The position numbers and the translations under genes are program-made. Shown in pieces: positions 1,031-42,495 of a stretch of 64,000 nucleotides of DNA (position 1 is its first letter; every line of letters begins with the position of its first letter). The notes below the pieces were generated by a model. That model saw nothing but the letters and a program-made list of their open reading frames with translations. It did no database searches and was not told where the DNA came from. The stretch lies in the sequence record OR539219.1; one strand, written 5' to 3'. The stretch comes from Escherichia phage vB-Eco-KMB39.

Positions 1031-1038
1031 TTGATTGT

Positions 1039-1052
1039 GGGGCTTCGGCCCC
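1039..1052 (+). terminator. GC stem with UUCG tetraloop after gene 18
   Basis: GGGGC-TTCG-GCCCC 9 bp after stop. Confidence 0.5.
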
Positions 1053-1117
1053 TATTCTCGAGGAAACAAGTGATTATTTCTAAGTTTGTTACAATAAAAC
1101 CAAGAAATCATTCAAAA

Positions 1118-1675
1118 ATGTGGTCGGCAATTCTAGGATATGAAGTATCATATCATGATACAGTATCTGTTCCAATAGAATTAATGCCAAAGAATAGTAA
1201 TAAAATAGTTGACGCTAAATGTGATTTGTGCGGTATTAAATTTAGTAGAAGCATTCAGCTTTTAAATAGAACACCCACACATGCGTGTAGAAAATGCAGT
1301 ATTAAACAAGTTGCTATTAAAAATTCGGAAGTTCAATCCGGAATAAGCAGACCATGGCAAAGAGGCGATAAACATCCTCGATGGACTGGTAAAAGAAAAG
1401 AGTTTGCATTATATGCTAGTAGAGTTCATTCTATAACTAAGTCAGCTAAAATAAGAAAAATTTGGTCAAAATGGCCGAATGCTGATAAAATAGGAGTGTG
1501 CGGTGTAGAAGGTGCTTATCAACTCGATCATAAAGTATCTATCAAATATGGATTTGATAATTTAATTCCGCCGGAAATTATAGCAAGCGTAAAAAATTTA
1601 GAAATAATCACTTGGGAATCTAACCGAGAAAAGTCAAAAAGAAATAGCGTAGATCTTTGGGATTTACTAGAATGA
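1118..1675 (+). CDS. HNH-like nuclease (putative free-standing homing endonuclease) inserted between genes 18 and 19
   Basis: ORF track frame 1031-1675; first ATG at 1118 (MWSAILG...); two CxxC pairs (CDLCG, CRKCS) and C-terminal DH..N..N motif (QLDHKVSIKYGFDNL...NLEIITWESNREK); flanked by hairpins. Confidence 0.5.
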   Translation: MWSAILGYEVSYHDTVSVPIELMPKNSNKIVDAKCDLCGIKFSRSIQLLNRTPTHACRKCSIKQVAIKNSEVQSGISRPWQRGDKHPRWTGKRKEFALYASRVHSITKSAKIRKIWSKWPNADKIGVCGVEGAYQLDHKVSIKYGFDNLIPPEIIASVKNLEIITWESNREKSKRNSVDLWDLLE

Positions 1676-7664: not shown

Positions 7665-7679
7665 TCTTTGACGATTTAA

Positions 7680-7708
7680 GGGACCTTCGGGTCCCTTTAG
7701 TTGTTTTT
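7680..7708 (+). terminator. rho-independent terminator after gene 23
   Basis: GGGACC-TTCG-GGTCCC followed by TTTAGTTGTTTTT. Confidence 0.75.
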
Positions 7709-7712
7709 ATGG

Positions 7713-7720
7713 TATAAATA
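7713..7720 (+). promoter_or_regulatory. late promoter core TATAAATA (gene 24)
   Basis: Exact match 27 bp upstream of gene 24 ATG, downstream of gene 23 terminator. Confidence 0.7.
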
Positions 7721-7747
7721 AATCATATAAACCAAAAGGAAAGCGCA

Positions 7748-13421: not shown

Positions 13422-14930
13422 ATGGATATTAAAGTACATTTTCACGACTTCAGTCATGTACGCATCGATTGTGAAGAGAGCACGTTCCACGAATTAAGAG
13501 ATTTCTTTTCGTTTGAGGCAGATGGATATAGGTTTAATCCTCGCTTCAGATATGGCAACTGGGATGGACGAATCCGTCTTTTAGATTATAATCGTCTTCT
13601 TCCGTTCGGCTTAGTCGGGCAAATTAAAAAGTTCTGCGATAACTTTGGCTATAAAGCCTGGATTGACCCTCAAATTAATGAAAAAGAAGAATTATCAAGA
13701 AAAGATTTTGATGAATGGCTTTCTAAATTAGAAATCTATTCAGGAAATAAAAGAATTGAACCACACTGGTATCAAAAAGATGCAGTGTTCGAAGGATTAG
13801 TTAATCGTCGCAGAATTCTTAATCTTCCAACATCCGCAGGTAAATCTTTAATTCAAGCTTTGCTTGCACGTTATTATTTGGAAAATTATGAAGGTAAAAT
13901 TCTTATCATTGTTCCAACAACTGCTCTGACAACTCAGATGGCTGATGACTTTGTTGACTATCGTTTATTCAGTCATGCAATGATAAAGAAAATCGGCGGC
14001 GGAGCATCAAAAGATGATAAATATAAAAATGATGCACCAGTCGTCGTTGGTACATGGCAAACTGTAGTTAAACAACCGAAAGAATGGTTCTCACAGTTTG
14101 GAATGATGATGAATGATGAATGTCATCTTGCTACAGGAAAAAGTATTTCATCTATCATATCAGGATTAAATAACTGTATGTTTAAATTTGGTCTATCAGG
14201 TTCATTACGTGATGGCAAAGCCAATATCATGCAGTATGTTGGAATGTTTGGTGAAATATTTAAACCAGTAACGACTTCTAAATTAATGGAAGATGGACAA
14301 GTAACTGAGCTAAAAATTAATAGTATTTTTCTTCGCTATCCCGATGAGTTCACTACTAAATTAAAGGGAAAAACTTACCAAGAAGAAATAAAAATTATTA
14401 CTGGACTCAGTAAAAGAAATAAATGGATTGCTAAATTAGCTATTAAACTTGCACAAAAAGATGAAAACGCTTTTGTCATGTTTAAGCATGTATCACATGG
14501 TAAAGCTATTTTCGATTTAATTAAAAATGAATACGATAAAGTTTATTACGTATCAGGGGAAGTTGATACCGAAACACGCAACGTAATGAAAACCCTAGCT
14601 GAAAACGGTAAAGGAATAATTATAGTAGCTAGTTATGGTGTATTTTCTACTGGTATTTCAGTTAAAAATCTGCATCACGTTGTTTTAGCGCACGGTGTTA
14701 AATCAAAAATCATTGTATTACAAACAATCGGTCGTGTATTACGTAAGCATGGTTCTAAGACAATAGCAACAGTCTGGGATCTTATAGATGACGCGGGCGT
14801 AGTTTCTAAATCAAAAACATCTTCTAAAAAATACTCGCATTTAAACTATCTTTTAAAACATGGACTTGATCGTATTCAGCGTTATGCTGATGAAAAGTTT
14901 AATTATGTGATGAAAGAGGTTAAACTTTGA
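13422..14930 (+). CDS. uvsW: UvsW RNA-DNA / DNA helicase
   Basis: 502 aa; Walker A LPTSAGKS and helicase motifs; MDIKVHFHDFSHVRIDCEE... Confidence 0.9.
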   Translation: MDIKVHFHDFSHVRIDCEESTFHELRDFFSFEADGYRFNPRFRYGNWDGRIRLLDYNRLLPFGLVGQIKKFCDNFGYKAWIDPQINEKEELSRKDFDEWLSKLEIYSGNKRIEPHWYQKDAVFEGLVNRRRILNLPTSAGKSLIQALLARYYLENYEGKILIIVPTTALTTQMADDFVDYRLFSHAMIKKIGGGASKDDKYKNDAPVVVGTWQTVVKQPKEWFSQFGMMMNDECHLATGKSISSIISGLNNCMFKFGLSGSLRDGKANIMQYVGMFGEIFKPVTTSKLMEDGQVTELKINSIFLRYPDEFTTKLKGKTYQEEIKIITGLSKRNKWIAKLAIKLAQKDENAFVMFKHVSHGKAIFDLIKNEYDKVYYVSGEVDTETRNVMKTLAENGKGIIIVASYGVFSTGISVKNLHHVVLAHGVKSKIIVLQTIGRVLRKHGSKTIATVWDLIDDAGVVSKSKTSSKKYSHLNYLLKHGLDRIQRYADEKFNYVMKEVKL

Positions 14931-15619
14931 ATTATAAATTAATATATGATAATTTAATTAATAGAGCCCAGAATCGGGCTCGCCTTAATGGATACACTGA
15001 AACACATCATATAATTCCTAGATGTATGGGTGGTACAAATGATAAGTGTAATTTAGTAGAACTAACGGCTGAAGAACATTTTATAGCCCATAAACTTTTA
15101 GCTAAAATTCATCCAAACCATTACGGTATAATTAAAGCTGTTATATGTATGGGGATGAATTCAAATACTCATGAAAGACACGTCAATAAATCTTACGCAT
15201 GGGAACGTCGTAAAATGGCAGAACTTCAATCCGGCGAAGGTAATCCATTTTACGGAAAACACCATACGGAAGAACATAAACAATATATGTCAAAACTCAT
15301 GAAAAGTCGTCCAATTACATGGGGAAATAAAATTAGTAAAACTAAAAGAATGAACCCAACGAAATGGACTGAAGAAGCTAAAAGATTACATTCAATCAAT
15401 CAATCGGGTAAAAATAACGGCATGTATGGAAGGAAACATTCCGCTAAATCTATTCAGAAAATTAAAGATAACATGCCAGATAATTCAGGAGCTAATAACC
15501 CAGCTGCTAAACCTATAGAAGTAAATGGTGTTAAGTATAAATGTATGAAAGATGCTTCTAAAGCTACTGGATTATCAATGTACAAACTAAGAATACTTAG
15601 AAAAACAGTTAATTTATAA
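14927..15619 (+). CDS. HNH homing endonuclease (Mob-like), TTG-initiated
   Basis: 230 aa; N-terminus near-identical to the mobE product at 42495-43226 (MNY.IY.DLI.RAQ...ETHHI.P.CMGG); starts at TTG 14927 overlapping uvsW TGA; GAGG 7 nt upstream. Confidence 0.75.
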   Translation: MNYKLIYDNLINRAQNRARLNGYTETHHIIPRCMGGTNDKCNLVELTAEEHFIAHKLLAKIHPNHYGIIKAVICMGMNSNTHERHVNKSYAWERRKMAELQSGEGNPFYGKHHTEEHKQYMSKLMKSRPITWGNKISKTKRMNPTKWTEEAKRLHSINQSGKNNGMYGRKHSAKSIQKIKDNMPDNSGANNPAAKPIEVNGVKYKCMKDASKATGLSMYKLRILRKTVNL

Positions 15620-24495: not shown

Positions 24496-24525
24496 ACTAT
24501 AACACAACATAAGGAACTTGTAAAC
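24496..24525 (-). promoter_or_regulatory. T4-type early promoter (GTTTAC -35, TATAGT -10)
   Basis: GTTTAC-N18-TATAGT on - strand, upstream of ORF 24174-24464. Confidence 0.55.
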
Positions 24526-26582
24526 TACATTTTGAACTTTTTAGACATTCCGTTGATGTTAACCAAAGAAGCCAAGATTTGAGAAACTTCGTTTTCCTCT
24601 TCTTTTGATTCTTCTACAAGAAATTGATTAAATCCAGCCATTGGACGAACTTCACCAGTTTCCATTAGATGGTCTCCATCATATACTGATTCTTCTAATT
24701 GTTCAGAAGGAGGAACGATTGTACCTTCAATTAGATACTTGTTATAAGCAGTTTCTTTCATAAAGTACGTACTTACTTTATTAATCTTCAGTAAAATTCC
24801 ACGCGGTAGAATAACTTCAGCTTCTGATGGAAATCCTGATAAATGACCTGGAACGATAACTTTGATTCGCTCAGCTCCTTTAATTACCATACCCACGCTA
24901 GTTTCAGCATCTTCATTAGCATATGTAGAATGACTACCCATATGCATCAAATCTTCTGCATCAACGGAATCTTCTCCTTCACCGGAAAATACTGCGCCGG
25001 AATCATCTAGAGCCATATAGTTTTTACCATGCTCACCGAAGATATTTGGTTTAAGCGATGTGGATACGAAGTTCTTGAAATAAAACATTTTATTTTCAAT
25101 GTTATGACGCAAAGTTTTAAAGGTAACTTCTTGTCCACGGTAAAGCGTAGTTCCTGGAGGAAGAACTGAACCTTTAGCGAATGCAGAATCCAACGTCTCG
25201 ATGTGCTTAATAGCACGTTCCATATATTCTTCACGGGTAGAATCTGGTTTACCCAAAAGGAACGAGTTCATTTCAACATATGAATCTGCACAATAATCTT
25301 CAATTACATCAGACTCAGCCTGAGTCAGTCCTTTTGGAGTTACTTCAGTGCTTGCGTATTCATATGCCTGAGCAGCAGATTCATTAATCAATTTATAAAT
25401 GCCATTCATGACAAATTGAATAATAGCTGTCTTTTCATCTGGCGTAGCTTTAGAACCTTTAACCAAATCATTGATAATTTTCTTAATAACATCAAAGCTA
25501 TTAGAAATATTAATGTCAGCAAGATCGCTTAAAATTTTATCGGTTTTATAATCAAAGAATTCTTTATTCTTTAAATATTCTTGAGAACCTTGATATGTTA
25601 TATCGCTCTGCAGCTTGATAGATGGATCACGTAAACGCGCATGGGCCAATGCGATATGATTTCGGAAGTTTTCTAGTTCATAATCGCTAGATTTAAAACG
25701 AGAAGCACTCCTCATACCACCAATAGCTCCTTTGCTGAAGTTTGAACCAATCTGGATAACGCCAGAGTTCATTGGTCCTTCTGCTTTATATACCGGAACT
25801 TTAGATTCAAACTCTTGATATTTCTTGGCAGCGAAGCTATCACCCTGAAGTGAAGCATCAACAGTAGAATATTGAGCTTGTGCTGCTAATCGACGACTGA
25901 TTTTAGTTTTCTGAATAACAGCTTGGTCCGTGCGTTTATCATTTTCTAAAGCAATAGAAGCAGCAACAGCGACAGCTTTAGGAACAGCATTTCCTGTTTT
26001 AACGTCTACATAAACATCACCGACCTTTGATTCAACTTTTGTGAATAACTCAGTTGAAATAGGAGGTACACCTGGAATGTCTTCTAAATTGGCATTTTTA
26101 CGGTAAACCATAATATATGCATACTTTTTATCATAGTCCCAGATTTCCTTTAAAAGAACATATCGACCTGCTCCTTTAGTACGTACTAAACGGTCAGCAA
26201 TAACTTGCATTTGACGAGCTGCGCCATTTGTTTTACTCTTTAGTACACGGAATAAGCACGCGTCAATTTTGTACTGCTTCATTGTTTGAAGAGCAGTATC
26301 AAAAACAGCATTAATGACGCCAATTGGATTTCCACCCAAGTTTCTAAGCTTAACCAGCGATAATTTCTCGTTGACACCTATCATTACGATATGCATCATT
26401 TTATCGCCTAGTTTAACGTTTTTATTTGTATCACCACCAGAGGTGTATGTACAAAATCTAAATCCAGGAAGCACGCTTTCTTCGCCGGCTTGGATAGCAA
26501 AAATTTGAGGTATTTTATGCTTAGGATTTAAGTTAACAACCGGCGCCGAAGCGCCGTCAAATAATTCTGTAATAAGTTCCAT
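24525..26582 (-). CDS. alt: Alt-family ADP-ribosyltransferase (copy 1, 685 aa)
   Basis: C-terminal ART signature: R (LYRGQ), S-T-S (FVSTSL), E-x-E (SEAEVILPRG); N-terminus MELITELFD... Confidence 0.8.
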   Translation of the reverse strand: MELITELFDGASAPVVNLNPKHKIPQIFAIQAGEESVLPGFRFCTYTSGGDTNKNVKLGDKMMHIVMIGVNEKLSLVKLRNLGGNPIGVINAVFDTALQTMKQYKIDACLFRVLKSKTNGAARQMQVIADRLVRTKGAGRYVLLKEIWDYDKKYAYIMVYRKNANLEDIPGVPPISTELFTKVESKVGDVYVDVKTGNAVPKAVAVAASIALENDKRTDQAVIQKTKISRRLAAQAQYSTVDASLQGDSFAAKKYQEFESKVPVYKAEGPMNSGVIQIGSNFSKGAIGGMRSASRFKSSDYELENFRNHIALAHARLRDPSIKLQSDITYQGSQEYLKNKEFFDYKTDKILSDLADINISNSFDVIKKIINDLVKGSKATPDEKTAIIQFVMNGIYKLINESAAQAYEYASTEVTPKGLTQAESDVIEDYCADSYVEMNSFLLGKPDSTREEYMERAIKHIETLDSAFAKGSVLPPGTTLYRGQEVTFKTLRHNIENKMFYFKNFVSTSLKPNIFGEHGKNYMALDDSGAVFSGEGEDSVDAEDLMHMGSHSTYANEDAETSVGMVIKGAERIKVIVPGHLSGFPSEAEVILPRGILLKINKVSTYFMKETAYNKYLIEGTIVPPSEQLEESVYDGDHLMETGEVRPMAGFNQFLVEESKEEENEVSQILASLVNINGMSKKFKM

Positions 26583-26585
26583 GAT

Positions 26586-28679
26586 TTATCCTTGAACGAA
26601 CTTGTAAGGCATGTTTGTAATATCTATGCAAGACGCAATAATTCCAAGAGATGATTCTACTTTCTGTTTAACATTTGATGAAACAAATGATGCAAAGTCA
26701 ACTTTGTCTTCTATTTCAATATCACCTGTCATTGCAACTACTTCGCCGGTTTCCATTAAACGGTCACCGTCATAAATTACCGATTCGGTGAGTTCTTCTG
26801 TGGTCATAACTTCAGCTTGAATGAGTTTTGTATTATTAGACGTGATTCCGTCATTATTAGAAGCATCAGTTATTTTATTAACTTTGACCATCAATCCACG
26901 CGGTAGAATAACTTCAGCTTCTGTTGCTATTCCGAGACTTCCTGGATATACAACATTAACTTTATGAGCTCCATCAATTGCCCATCCTATTTGAACTTTA
27001 ACGTATTCAGGATTTTCTTTATACGCTCTTATTTCGTTTGGATTAATAGTTATTCCTTCTTCATTTTTATCAACTGTTAATTCATTGCGAGCTTCTGGTT
27101 CTAAAAGACCAATACCAGCATGTGTAATTCCAAAACGTCCAAAAATGATAGGAGTTAAAGAAGTAGATACAAAATTTCTGAAATAGAACACTTTATTTTT
27201 AACTAGTGCTTCGTATATAGGAGCAGTCATACTTTGAGCACGATAAACTGTAATGCCTTCTGGTATACGGTCACCATTTTCAAAAGCTGAATCTAAATTA
27301 TTTATAGCAGATTCAATTTCTTTTTCACTCATTATATCATATCGTTCTGGATTGTAACGACCTAAAAGAAGATTATTGATGTCTGTATATCCTGAACCAC
27401 AATACTCTCTAATGCCGCGCTTTTGTGATGGAGTATATTTAGAACCATCACGGGCAATAGTAATATCAATCATTGGACCTGCACCAATTCCGGAAAAGCT
27501 ATAAATCATTCGTTTGAGGAATTTAGTTTTTGCTGCATTCCAGGCATTTTTAGTTATTTCTCCCCAGACTTCATCTGGCTGCCCTTTACGAGTTTTATTA
27601 TGTTTATCAAGCCAATTATCTTTATATTCTTCAAATAATTGATTAACAGCTGCTGCGTATTTCTCTAAACATTTTATTGAAGTAGTTGGTTCATTTTTAA
27701 TCGCATTAAGAATTACATCTTTAATTTTTTCTGAAACTTCACCGACTTGACTCATTGGAAAGAATTTATAATCATAGTGAAGTTCATCTGCCGTTCCTTC
27801 AGCAATAATTTTTGCTGCCTTAGTTTTAGAAGCTAATGAATTAATTCCAAGCTTCATTTCTTCTGCTTCGGGAATTAAAGGTGCAGTAGCAGGTTTATTG
27901 AAATTAGCTGCGGTAGATTCATACTTCTGGAATAATTCACTTTCAAATCTAGAAGATTCCAATGACTGACTTTGTGCAATTGCTCTACGGGAAATTTTAA
28001 CTTTAACGATTACGGCTTGGTCAGAACGTTTATCGTTTTCTTGTGCAATAGATGCAGCAATTGCCTCATTTTTGGTTACTTGAGCTCCAGTATCTTTATT
28101 AATATAAACATCACCGACCTTCGATTCAACTTTAGTAAAGAGCTCGGTACTAATTTCCGGAACTCCTGGAATGTCTTCTAGTGATACATTTTTGCGATGT
28201 ATAAGAATATATGCATACTTTTTATCATAATCCCAGAGTTCCTTAAGAAGGACGTATCTGCCACCTGAACGACTACGGATAAGTCTATCAGCAATAACTT
28301 GAATTTGTCGAGCTTGGCCAGCAGTTTTAGACTTAAGAATACGAAGCATACAAGCATCAATTTTATACTGACGCATTGTTTGCATTGCAACAGTAAAAAC
28401 TGAATTGATATAATTAATTGGGCTTGGACCAAGACCTTTTAATTTAGCAATTGAACCTTTAGCAGTTAATGTAAAAGGAACAATATGCATCATTTTGTCG
28501 CCCATTTTTAAATCGCGATTAGTATCACCTCCAGATGTATAGGTACATAAACGAAAGCCTGGTTGTTCAATTGCATCATCAACATGAACTGAAAAAATTT
28601 GTGGTATTTTCTTCTTTGGATTTAAGTTTGTAATCGGAAGAGTAGTATCTTCGTCAAATAATTCTGTAATAAGTTCCAT
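26586..28679 (-). CDS. alt: Alt-family ADP-ribosyltransferase (copy 2, 697 aa)
   Basis: Same N-terminus and ART motifs (VYRAQ, FVSTSL, TEAEVILPRG); central region diverged; late promoter TATAAATA upstream. Confidence 0.8.
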   Translation of the reverse strand: MELITELFDEDTTLPITNLNPKKKIPQIFSVHVDDAIEQPGFRLCTYTSGGDTNRDLKMGDKMMHIVPFTLTAKGSIAKLKGLGPSPINYINSVFTVAMQTMRQYKIDACMLRILKSKTAGQARQIQVIADRLIRSRSGGRYVLLKELWDYDKKYAYILIHRKNVSLEDIPGVPEISTELFTKVESKVGDVYINKDTGAQVTKNEAIAASIAQENDKRSDQAVIVKVKISRRAIAQSQSLESSRFESELFQKYESTAANFNKPATAPLIPEAEEMKLGINSLASKTKAAKIIAEGTADELHYDYKFFPMSQVGEVSEKIKDVILNAIKNEPTTSIKCLEKYAAAVNQLFEEYKDNWLDKHNKTRKGQPDEVWGEITKNAWNAAKTKFLKRMIYSFSGIGAGPMIDITIARDGSKYTPSQKRGIREYCGSGYTDINNLLLGRYNPERYDIMSEKEIESAINNLDSAFENGDRIPEGITVYRAQSMTAPIYEALVKNKVFYFRNFVSTSLTPIIFGRFGITHAGIGLLEPEARNELTVDKNEEGITINPNEIRAYKENPEYVKVQIGWAIDGAHKVNVVYPGSLGIATEAEVILPRGLMVKVNKITDASNNDGITSNNTKLIQAEVMTTEELTESVIYDGDRLMETGEVVAMTGDIEIEDKVDFASFVSSNVKQKVESSLGIIASCIDITNMPYKFVQG

Positions 28680-30647: not shown

Positions 30648-31483
30648 TAGAATGCTCCTTGGAAAATATTATCACCACTAGTAGGTCTATTATACAAATA
30701 CTCTATGCCACCGGGTTTAATATAGTTCCATGTCTGAAACGGATGCGTCTGATATGGATGATATAGATTATAAGGATTAAATCCAGGAGTTCTCCAGGTA
30801 GTGTTCCAAGGAAAAGAATCGTTTTTAATCATCTTTTCAATTACATCTTTTATAGCTTTTTCACTATCAAAACTTTCTTTATTTTCATTCGATGGAAAAA
30901 GCTTATTCTCTACATCATTCCATGTATAAACTCGCTGTGCAGCTTTTGGAATATTGTCACGCTCTCCTCGAGCCATCCAATAAACAGGAACATTTAATAT
31001 TTCACTCGCATGATCGCAGTGGTGAGCGAGATCGTCAATATAACAAATTACGTTATATTTCTCTTTTGCCTTTTTGAACAACTCTTCTTTTGAAGAATCA
31101 TGACCACACATCAATACTTCTGAGAAGGCATCAGGAAAAAGAGCATTCAAATTAAATTGACGATTCAGCAGAGCGTCAATAGAATCACCCAGTGCTGTAA
31201 CAGCTACAAAATTATAATCTTCTTTTAATTTGTTAATTACACACAGGGCATCTTTATATGGAGACAAATAGCGAATAAAATCTGAACGATTATACTTTTC
31301 GATTAATTTAACACCAAGTTCTTCATCGCAATTAAAGAGCTTACCAGGAGAAATAAATTTTTCGTCCTGAATCATTTTTAAAATATGTTCCAACGGAAGA
31401 TTATATTTTTGGGCAAAATAAGGAAGGCCTGATTGCCAGCTTAAACATACTCCATCAATATCAGTTAAAATAGTAGGCTTCAT
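30647..31483 (-). CDS. hypothetical protein with HAD-like N-terminal motif (30.2-like)
   Basis: 278 aa; LTDIDGVC resembles HAD hydrolase motif I (DxDG[TV]). Confidence 0.55.
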   Translation of the reverse strand: MKPTILTDIDGVCLSWQSGLPYFAQKYNLPLEHILKMIQDEKFISPGKLFNCDEELGVKLIEKYNRSDFIRYLSPYKDALCVINKLKEDYNFVAVTALGDSIDALLNRQFNLNALFPDAFSEVLMCGHDSSKEELFKKAKEKYNVICYIDDLAHHCDHASEILNVPVYWMARGERDNIPKAAQRVYTWNDVENKLFPSNENKESFDSEKAIKDVIEKMIKNDSFPWNTTWRTPGFNPYNLYHPYQTHPFQTWNYIKPGGIEYLYNRPTSGDNIFQGAF

Positions 31484-31944
31484 AGAGAGTCTCTTAATAG
31501 GTTTAACACATCAATAAATTCAGCTTCGGTTAGTATTGTATCATCTTTTGTTAGACCACTAGCCATGCTATGCTTCAAAATTTTTCCTTTTGAGGCTTGT
31601 AAGGCATCACGAAACCCCTTGTTTTGGATCGCTGCTTCAAAATATGCATTTGTATACAATTCTTTCCACGCTGGAGAGTATCTTGAAAACGGAACTCCAA
31701 GCCAGAAGAGGGTCCCACGGTCTTGAGCTCTAGCATAAGACCTTCCAGCTTGTTGGGCGGCAAGCCCGGATAACCCAAATATACGACGTTGTTGTTCAGC
31801 ATTTTTCACCTTACATCCTTGAAGGAATCCTTCGAGACCTCCAAATTGGATACCATCCATAACGAAAGGCCATTGGGCGAAATTGCTTAATGCACATGAT
31901 GGCCATCTAAAATTGCTTCTTATTTCTAGCTCAGACATTTTCAA
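31480..31944 (-). CDS. NADAR / YbiA-like domain protein (30.3-like)
   Basis: 154 aa; ALSNFAQWPFVMDGIQFGGLEGFLQGCK resembles YbiA motif DFSNFAAWP..VDG...SEHYFQAQK. Confidence 0.6.
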   Translation of the reverse strand: MKMSELEIRSNFRWPSCALSNFAQWPFVMDGIQFGGLEGFLQGCKVKNAEQQRRIFGLSGLAAQQAGRSYARAQDRGTLFWLGVPFSRYSPAWKELYTNAYFEAAIQNKGFRDALQASKGKILKHSMASGLTKDDTILTEAEFIDVLNLLRDSL

Positions 31945-33024: not shown

Positions 33025-33061
33025 TTTTATTCTCCGAGATGTTTAATTGCGGTACAGGTAT

Positions 33062-33090
33062 ATAATATCATATCCTGTACCAAAGTAAAC
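33062..33090 (-). promoter_or_regulatory. T4-type early promoter (GTTTAC, TGaTATTAT)
   Basis: GTTTAC-N17-TATTAT with TG extension; -10 sits between 8-bp inverted repeats GGTACAGG / CCTGTACC. Confidence 0.55.
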
Positions 33091-33092
33091 AA

Positions 33093-33425
33093 TTATTTTA
33101 CTACTTTCCAGTGCTGCATGTCAAGTTTGCCAACTTTTTTCATCTTCTCAATTAAGCGTTCGGCACGTTGGCGAGCTGTAACATAATACCATTCACCTAA
33201 TTCATTTTGTTCAATTTTTCCAACGATTACTGTATTCAACTCATAAATCCAACCGGTAAAGAAATTATGAACTTGAATTGTAAAGGTGAAATCTGTTCCC
33301 ATACCTTCTGTTGTTTCTACTTCAATAATATCACCTTCAACTGCCATTAAGAACCACATAGTTTCATCATATTTACCATTGAAGCATTTAGTTTTAACTG
33401 TAGCGTTCAGATTAATCGTTTTCAT
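33093..33425 (-). CDS. hypothetical protein
   Basis: 110 aa; early-type promoter and GGAG RBS upstream. Confidence 0.5.
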   Translation of the reverse strand: MKTINLNATVKTKCFNGKYDETMWFLMAVEGDIIEVETTEGMGTDFTFTIQVHNFFTGWIYELNTVIVGKIEQNELGEWYYVTARQRAERLIEKMKKVGKLDMQHWKVVK

Positions 33426-33510: not shown

Positions 33511-33532
33511 AAGGACTCCCGAAGGAGTCCTT
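33511..33532 (-). terminator. rho-independent terminator
   Basis: - strand AAGGACTCC-TTCG-GGAGTCCTT followed by T-run. Confidence 0.65.
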
Positions 33533-34593: not shown

Positions 34594-34618
34594 ATAATAA
34601 CAAATAATTCTTAAAGCA
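34594..34618 (-). promoter_or_regulatory. MotA-box middle promoter upstream of gene 31
   Basis: - strand AAATGCTTTA, 12-bp spacer, TATTAT. Confidence 0.5.
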
Positions 34619-41316: not shown

Positions 41317-42495
41317 TTAAAAGTATTTTTTAAAACTCATCATAACTTTATCATCAACATCATTATCAATCTGTGCAACAAGATAAGATGACAGTTCTAC
41401 TTCTTGCGGCGCGGATTGAACATTATCAGAATTAAGGTATTCACGAATCCAAGGATATGGATGTTTAACCGGAGCATCGGTAATTGGGCATGGAAGACCA
41501 CACTGTTTCATACGAGATACAGTTAAGTAATCAATAAAGCTCCACATGCTATTTGTATTTAATCCAGGAACATCGCCATCTTTAAATAAATGAACTGCCC
41601 AATCTTTTTCTTGGCGGTTAACTTCCATGAAAATATCAACTGCTTCTTGTTCACACTCTTTGGCAATTTTAACCCATTCATCACCATCAGTGCCAAGTTG
41701 AAGTTGACGAATAATATACTGGGTGCCTTTAAGGTGGAGTTGTTCGTCTCGAGCAATGAATTTCATAATCTTCGCATTACCTTCCATGATTTCCATATTT
41801 TTATGGAAGTTGAAAGTACATGCAAAGGATACATAAAAACGAATAGCTTCCAGGGCATTGATAACATGAAGGCAGAGATAAAGCGACTTCATCAATGCAT
41901 ATTTACATTCTTCCACATGCATAAGACTATTTGAATATGCATCTAAATCATATTCATTTTCGGAAAAACATTTAAAAATTTCTTTTGCATTTTCCCATTC
42001 GCGCGTCTTAACCAGAACATCATCATAATAACGACCAATAGATTCAGCACGTTTCATGATAGCTTTATCTAATACAATCTCATCAAATACCTTTGACGGA
42101 TCAGTATAAAGATTTCGCATAATATGAGTGTATGAACGACTGTGAATAGTTTCACTAAAAGTCCATGTAGCAACCCATGTATCAAGACTTGGGTCTGAAA
42201 TTAACGACATAAGTACAGCAGACGGTGCACGACCCTGAATGCTATCTAGAAGTGATTGATACTTCAGGTTATTAGTAAAAATATCTTGCTGATATTGAGG
42301 AAGCTTGTTAAATTGCGCAGCATCCATCATTAAGTTTACTTCTTCAGGACGCCAGAAAAATGACAACTGCTTTTCGGTTAAATCTTCAAAAACTTTATGA
42401 CGTTGAATATCGTAACGCGCAATACCAAGACCTGAACCGAAGAACATAGGTTCTTTTAAAACATCAACTGGATTTGTATTAAAAACTGTAGACAT
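41317..42495 (-). CDS. nrdB: ribonucleotide reductase small subunit, uninterrupted
   Basis: 392 aa from ATG 42495 (MSTVFNTNP...); continuous reading frame; start overlaps mobE stop (TAATG). Confidence 0.9.
   Translation of the reverse strand: MSTVFNTNPVDVLKEPMFFGSGLGIARYDIQRHKVFEDLTEKQLSFFWRPEEVNLMMDAAQFNKLPQYQQDIFTNNLKYQSLLDSIQGRAPSAVLMSLISDPSLDTWVATWTFSETIHSRSYTHIMRNLYTDPSKVFDEIVLDKAIMKRAESIGRYYDDVLVKTREWENAKEIFKCFSENEYDLDAYSNSLMHVEECKYALMKSLYLCLHVINALEAIRFYVSFACTFNFHKNMEIMEGNAKIMKFIARDEQLHLKGTQYIIRQLQLGTDGDEWVKIAKECEQEAVDIFMEVNRQEKDWAVHLFKDGDVPGLNTNSMWSFIDYLTVSRMKQCGLPCPITDAPVKHPYPWIREYLNSDNVQSAPQEVELSSYLVAQIDNDVDDKVMMSFKKYF

Follow-up and report, generated by a model that had tools for sequence, protein, structure and literature searches.

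An AdfN-type NADAR enzyme of Escherichia phage vB-Eco-KMB39: a very probable orthologue of the T4 factor countering DarTG1

Introduction

The resistance of T-even phages to DarTG1 was mapped by phage crosses to T4 gene 30.3, which was thereupon renamed adfN, for 'anti-DarT factor NADAR' (Johannesman, Awasthi, Carlson, LeRoux; bioRxiv 2024, PMC11257639; Nat Commun 2025;16:1598, PMC11825919). Here, we analyze what is very probably the orthologue of this gene, encoding a 152-residue, single-domain enzyme of the NADAR superfamily that counters DarTG1, on the minus strand of a 64,000-nucleotide stretch from Escherichia phage vB-Eco-KMB39 (OR539219.1; the whole stretch is hereafter the window). In T4, AdfN was found to be both necessary and sufficient for DarTG1 counter-defense during T-even infection; the purified protein strips ADP-ribose from DarT1-modified DNA in vitro, the E36A and K43A versions of AdfN(T4) have lost their function, and a two-hybrid assay revealed no interaction between AdfN and DarT1 (PMC11257639, PMC11825919). 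Independent work indicates that T4 gp30.3 hydrolyzes guanosine-ADP-ribose, not thymidine-ADP-ribose, in vitro (PMC11125620; PMC12945103). The methods of one of these studies (Toxins 2024, PMC11125620) give the construct as 'residues 1-208', at odds with the 152-residue T4 protein. In a transposon screen of T4, adfN insertions were lost specifically on the DarTG1 host, making the gene conditionally essential (bioRxiv 10.1101/2025.11.20.689424). Finally, phage RB69 owes its sensitivity to DarTG1 to an additional T at nucleotide 411, which deprives its AdfN of the last 15 residues; the allele is reported to be non-functional (PMC11825919).

Beyond AdfN itself, several described systems offer points of comparison. 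One is the antitoxin DarG1 of the BC4488 family (e.g., the Geobacter lovleyi NADAR, PDB 8bat), whose gene adjoins that of its DarT1 toxin, and which AdfN(T4) cannot replace in uninfected cells. The 8bat protein has 219 residues with extra N-terminal elements, whereas the window product consists of the 152-residue core only. Escherichia coli YbiA (2b3w; PF08719) is a bacterial housekeeping protein with a link to riboflavin metabolism; it confers no in vivo protection against DarT1 (PMC11125620 among the sources) and shows only 18-19% identity to the window product. A single residue in the last strand distinguishes these families, being Glu in YbiA, Asp in the DarT-associated BC4488/DarG1 family and His in phage gp30.3 (Schuller et al. 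2023, Suskiewicz et al.; PMC11125620, PMC11543638). Phages also deploy anti-DarT factors of other kinds. AdfA (a homologue of T4 61.2), which is likewise found in T-even phages and likewise acts against DarTG1, and AdfB of ICP1 are small proteins unrelated to AdfN and devoid of an enzymatic domain, which appear to neutralize DarT by binding; AdfN, in contrast, undoes the modification of the DNA and shows no interaction with DarT1. AdfM (T4 tk.4), an anti-DarTG2 factor, follows the same strategy as AdfN in being an orphan phage homologue of an antitoxin hydrolase, but it displays the macrodomain fold, targets the thymine ADP-ribosylation made by DarT2 and is encoded elsewhere in the genome, no AdfM having been found at the adfN locus.

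Results and Discussion

Orthology and conservation of the window gene

The product of the window gene is identical to T4 gp30.3 (NP_049816) at 149 of 152 residues (98%) and has the same length. Its genomic setting is likewise that of T4, with the gene order DNA ligase 30, 30.1, 30.2, 30.3, 30.4, 30.5, 30.6, 30.7, 30.8, 30.9 and rIII. More broadly, collinearity of the window with T4 starts at T4 position 99.5 kb and holds up to the end of the T4 stretch that we compared, hence to 139.7 kb or beyond; the window is 96-97% identical to several Tequatrovirus isolates. At the family level, the product scores 232.9 bits (E = 1.2e-69) with Pfam PF08010 (Phage_30_3, 'Bacteriophage protein GP30.3'), the curated cut-off of which is 36, and the alignment spans model positions 1-138 of 138; the product also matches PHROG 652. 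The exact protein is present in GenBank as WPJ71379.1 (phage vB-Eco-KMB39), and its T4 counterpart carries the UniProt name 'Anti-DarT factor NADAR' (NADAR_BPT4). Thus, the gene is not new: it is already known, characterized and named. Nearly all GenBank records of it are nonetheless still labeled 'hypothetical protein', and the value of the present work lies in the correct annotation.

A tblastn search recovered adfN in 1510 phage records, mostly those of T4-like phages of enterobacteria, Aeromonas, Acinetobacter and Vibrio; among the records recovered, the gene is restricted to phages. The comparison with T4 further reveals 23 nucleotide differences, which fall in 20 synonymous and three non-synonymous codon differences (V47A, V120I and I125M). 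This ratio indicates that adfN is under purifying selection. The orthology, the fold, the presence of the catalytic residues, the intact C-terminus and the purifying selection are results of this analysis; the enzyme activity and the anti-DarTG1 phenotype come from the literature on the T4 protein.

In the course of these searches, we observed that the 90%-identity protein cluster that holds the 152-residue product (31483..31938, minus strand, in the window) has the 279-residue gp30.2 as its representative and mixes both proteins among its 1386 members. This is a database artefact; gene calls that fuse 30.3 and 30.2 over the overlap of the two genes presumably brought the proteins together.

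The extent of the gene and its borders

The gene and the elements at its two ends are as follows:

31480..31938, minus strand: coding sequence of adfN (gene 30.3), 152 residues plus stop; by orthology, a predicted orphan NADAR-type DNA ADP-ribosylglycohydrolase
31942..31944, minus strand: in-frame TTG two codons 5' of the ATG; the start of a mechanically called 154-residue open reading frame (ORF) and probably not the real start
31931..31938, minus strand: overlap ATGTCTGA of the adfN start codon with the stop of gene 30.4 (from the sequence and the ORF ends)
31480..31483, minus strand: overlap ATGA of the adfN stop with the start of gene 30.2 (from the ORF coordinates), an arrangement common to T4

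A first-pass annotation of the window had described the product as a protein of 154 residues. The underlying ORF is real: it lies on the minus strand, which that annotation had not specified, and in the ORF list it comprises 154 codons, beginning with a TTG at 31944 and reaching its stop at 31480. The motif string quoted for it, ALSNFAQWPFVMDGIQFGGLEGFLQGCK, is indeed present in its product; its start, however, has to be moved. The T4 annotation uses the ATG at 31936..31938, giving 152 residues, and we prefer this start because it is the only one that agrees with the published numbering of E36 and K43. The T4 annotation and the published numbering together make the TTG an improbable start of adfN.

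The overlap ATGTCTGA, in which the stop of gene 30.4 is interleaved with the start of adfN, suggests that the two genes might be translationally coupled. T4 is also annotated with an internal out-of-frame ORF, 30.3' (75 residues; 31575..31802, minus strand, in the window), which we considered as a second product of the locus and rejected, though the frame is open here. Comparison of the window with T4 shows changes at about 10 of its 75 residues, as against the 20 synonymous and three non-synonymous differences in the 30.3 frame, such that it evolves as a non-coding frame would; further, it meets a stop after 34 codons in RB69 and its ATG is missing in PSD2002. Hence, 30.3' is probably not a gene.

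A phage branch of the NADAR superfamily

The first-pass annotation had likened the protein to NADAR/YbiA on the strength of a core motif, and both fold prediction and profile comparison bear this out. A search of PDB sequences with the single protein recovered YbiA (2b3w) alone, with an E-value of 1.3 that is non-significant by itself. A profile of 50 homologues, in contrast, matched YbiA with E = 0.0036, and 17 of the 50 family members individually match PF08719 NADAR (best E = 1.5e-7). A confident AlphaFold2 model built on the alignment of the 50 homologues attained a predicted local distance difference test score of 93.4 and a predicted template modeling score of 0.88; this model and a Foldseek fold search predict the YbiA/NADAR fold, in which small sheets lie on either side of a core of helices. 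The residues and segments that matter for function map to the window thus:

31810..31893, minus strand: codons of the NADAR core motif, residues A16-K43 (ALSNFAQWPFVMDGIQFGGLEGFLQGCK), from the HMMER alignment to YbiA 2b3w and the 50 homologues
31831..31833, minus strand: GAA codon of the catalytic Glu36, the equivalent of E43 in the Phytophthora NADAR; invariant in the 50 homologues
31810..31812, minus strand: AAG codon of the catalytic Lys43; kept in at least 90% of the 50 homologues
31570..31572, minus strand: CAT codon of His123, which defines the phage gp30.3 branch; invariant in the 50 homologues
31486..31527, minus strand: codons of the C-terminal helix (residues 138-151), which is complete and has the same sequence as in T4 (from the AlphaFold2 model and the DNA alignment of the window, T4, RB69 and PSD2002)

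Within the core, P13, A16, L17, S18, N19, F20, F25, E36, G37, F38 and Q40 are invariant across the 50 homologues, and E36 and K43 of the E..F.Q..K motif align to E48 and K55 of YbiA. The catalytic residues known from the literature are, therefore, in place. In the AlphaFold2 model, H123 sits where the last strand (E120-122) ends, and because of the His at this diagnostic position we assign the product to a branch of its own: it is a member of the phage gp30.3 (PF08010) branch of the NADAR superfamily and neither YbiA proper nor DarG1, which has Asp where the window product has His123. That the product is instead a YbiA-like housekeeping N-glycosidase, which would cleave reactive intermediates of the riboflavin pathway and have nothing to do with defense, is made extremely improbable by the same observation, as the last-strand Glu that defines YbiA gives way to His both in this protein and in every one of the 50 homologues; the confinement of the gene to phages, most of them T4-like, and the experimentally established anti-DarTG1 role of the T4 orthologue argue against it too.

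At the other end of the protein, the 1-nt T insertion of RB69 is visible in the DNA alignment at approximately gene position 411 (about 31527/31528 in the window) and is absent from the window gene, whose product is identical to that of T4 over its last 27 residues; in RB69, the insertion removes the C-terminal helix. Possession of an intact adfN instead of an RB69-type frameshifted copy predicts the ability to infect DarTG1 hosts, which is of use in anticipating host range and in choosing therapeutic phages.

Mechanism and alternative explanations

The immediate neighbors of adfN are the counterparts of T4 genes 30.4 and 30.2 (HAD-fold), with no ADP-ribosyltransferase gene adjacent. With no toxin gene beside it, adfN is an orphan antitoxin homologue. 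Together with the neighbors themselves, the overlaps with 30.4 and 30.2, the E36/K43/H123 constellation and the intact C-terminal helix constitute the likeness to T4 AdfN, while the difference is limited to the substitutions noted above, with the function in the window phage read from the sequence. The counter-defense role proposed in the first-pass annotation, the removal of ADP-ribose placed on guanine by DarT, is supported by the near-identity to the published protein. That annotation had hesitated to equate the gene with the T-even anti-DarT factor already described; the two are indeed the same, namely AdfN, as distinct from the earlier factor AdfA (gene 61.2).

Briefly, we advance the following mechanism, shown for T4 and very probable here. 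In bacteria carrying DarTG1, infection activates the DarT1 toxin, which ADP-ribosylates guanine bases of the phage DNA and thereby blocks replication. AdfN would then act in the manner of the host DarG1 antitoxin, although the phage carries it without a toxin gene, as an orphan. By means of Glu36, Lys43 and the His123 of the phage branch, it would hydrolyze the bond between guanine and ADP-ribose, returning the DNA to its unmodified state and allowing replication to proceed. It would be expected neither to bind the toxin nor to remove the ADP-ribose that DarT2 places on thymine.

Some observations weigh against a straightforward reading of the gene as a NADAR-type antitoxin. The single protein has no direct match to PF08719 NADAR at E <= 1 and none in NCBIfam; thus, its membership in the superfamily rests on the fold and profile evidence. 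Further, AdfN(T4) fails to rescue uninfected E. coli from DarT1 and barely rescues non-T-even phages (PMC11125620 among the sources). This poor action outside T-even infection means that 'simple free-standing antitoxin' is an incomplete description. Lastly, two of the substitutions, V120I and I125M, flank the catalytic His123, both lying within three residues of it. Given that one lesion as small as the RB69 frameshift is known to disable adfN, these could be held to have left the window allele inactive or altered in specificity, V47A possibly contributing. We regard this as highly improbable. All three substitutions are conservative; I120 and M125 are natural variants also found in RB69, the defect of which is ascribed to its 3' frameshift; and position 47, which is His in PSD2002, is not a conserved column among the 50 homologues. 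For these reasons we infer with high confidence that the window allele is a functional AdfN behaving as the T4 protein does. The recurrence of the exact protein in another isolated phage and the 20:3 ratio of synonymous to non-synonymous differences, which indicates ongoing constraint on the allele, point the same way.

A different question is whether DarT1-modified DNA is the principal substrate. The enzyme acts on the mark regardless of which toxin wrote it, and all NADAR families tested, that of T4 included, are reported to clear guanosine-ADP-ribose from both RNA and DNA (PMC12945103). Hence, the main targets might also, or instead, be other ADP-ribosylated nucleic acids, such as guanosine-ADP-ribose on RNA, the marks of other ADP-ribosyltransferase toxins of the host, or collateral marks left by the ADP-ribosyltransferases of the phage itself, two full-length Alt paralogues being encoded 3-7 kb downstream of adfN on the same strand. 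However, the target of Alt according to the T4 record annotation is arginine residues of proteins, which is not a class of NADAR substrate, and the T4 phage NADAR falls in subfamilies reported to remove only guanosine-ADP-ribose and not cytidine-ADP-ribose (PMC12945103). Moreover, the sole phenotype seen so far is specific to DarTG1, in that deletion of adfN has no effect on growth of the phage on E. coli K-12 but is lethal to it on a DarTG1 host. On balance, we consider such a broader or different target range rather unlikely and favor the removal of guanine ADP-ribosylation made by DarT1 as the role of AdfN.

The T-even requirement and the neighboring gene 30.2

AdfN(T4) is fully active only in T-even infection. 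DNA hypermodification is not the reason, and the authors of the T4 work propose that an additional T-even protein may be needed. The product of the downstream gene 30.2, the start of which overlaps the adfN stop, comes to mind as a candidate. While gp30.2 has no Pfam match, the present analysis identifies it as a HAD-fold phosphatase with the four HAD motifs, D8-x-D10-G11, T96, K132 and D150-D151, invariant in the family. Gene 30.2 was found in 1439 phage records as against 1510 for adfN, with close host distributions, and the adjacency of 30.2 and 30.3 is kept in Acinetobacter phage Acj61. Nevertheless, we deem it very doubtful that gp30.2 is the required partner. The two genes are no longer neighbors in the one Vibrio phage and the one Rhizobium phage examined, and the T4 transposon screen gives adfN in its text as the sole DarTG1 hit, with no mention of 30.2 (10.1101/2025.11.20.689424). 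The co-occurrence of 30.2 and adfN is confounded by, and compatible with, shared ancestry alone. We found nothing beyond synteny to link gp30.2 to AdfN, and a literature search for 'gp30.2' returned nothing.

Expression signals

A scan for promoter consensus sequences identified one site of relevance to adfN:

33095..33124, minus strand: candidate sigma-70 (T4 early-type) promoter TTGACA-18-TAAAAT upstream of 30.7 (11/12 matches to the consensus)

It is the nearest promoter-like site on the same strand 5' of the string of genes from 30.7 to 30, and closely follows a terminator-like hairpin (33532..33511). When MotA-type middle promoters were sought, the region immediately 5' of 30.3 contained none; the closest one on this strand, at 34594..34618, precedes gene 31. 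The adfN gene is probably expressed within the minus-strand string of early or middle genes that runs from 30.7 to 30, the promoter being a pattern match only. In the same region (33030..33124, minus strand), the candidate promoter is followed in the 5' leader of 30.7 by a perfect hairpin with an 8-bp stem (GGTACAGG...CCTGTACC), which may be an element of regulation or RNA stability.

Other features of the window

The window departs from T4 in its complement of mobile elements. Absent here are segD, between genes 23 and 24 (about 7675..7736), and the group I intron of nrdB with I-TevIII (about 41819..41822). Conversely, a 230-residue ORF absent from T4 is found directly after uvsW (14927..15619, plus strand); with an HNH-like motif and NUMOD3 repeats (PF07460, E = 8e-14), it is probably a free-standing homing endonuclease. 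A further ORF of 214 residues (1031..1675, plus strand) occupies an insertion of approximately 640 bp relative to T4 between the tail sheath gene 18 and the tail tube gene 19. It has no Pfam match and displays a Cys-rich N-terminus and a DHK...N motif reminiscent of HNH endonucleases.

Finally, the two Alt-type ADP-ribosyltransferase paralogues are full-length and in tandem on the minus strand (24525..26582 and 26586..28679), encoding proteins of 685 and 697 residues, both matching PF03496. Their counterpart in T4 is one alt gene with the remnants alt.-1 and alt.-2, whereas other Tequatrovirus records also list two.
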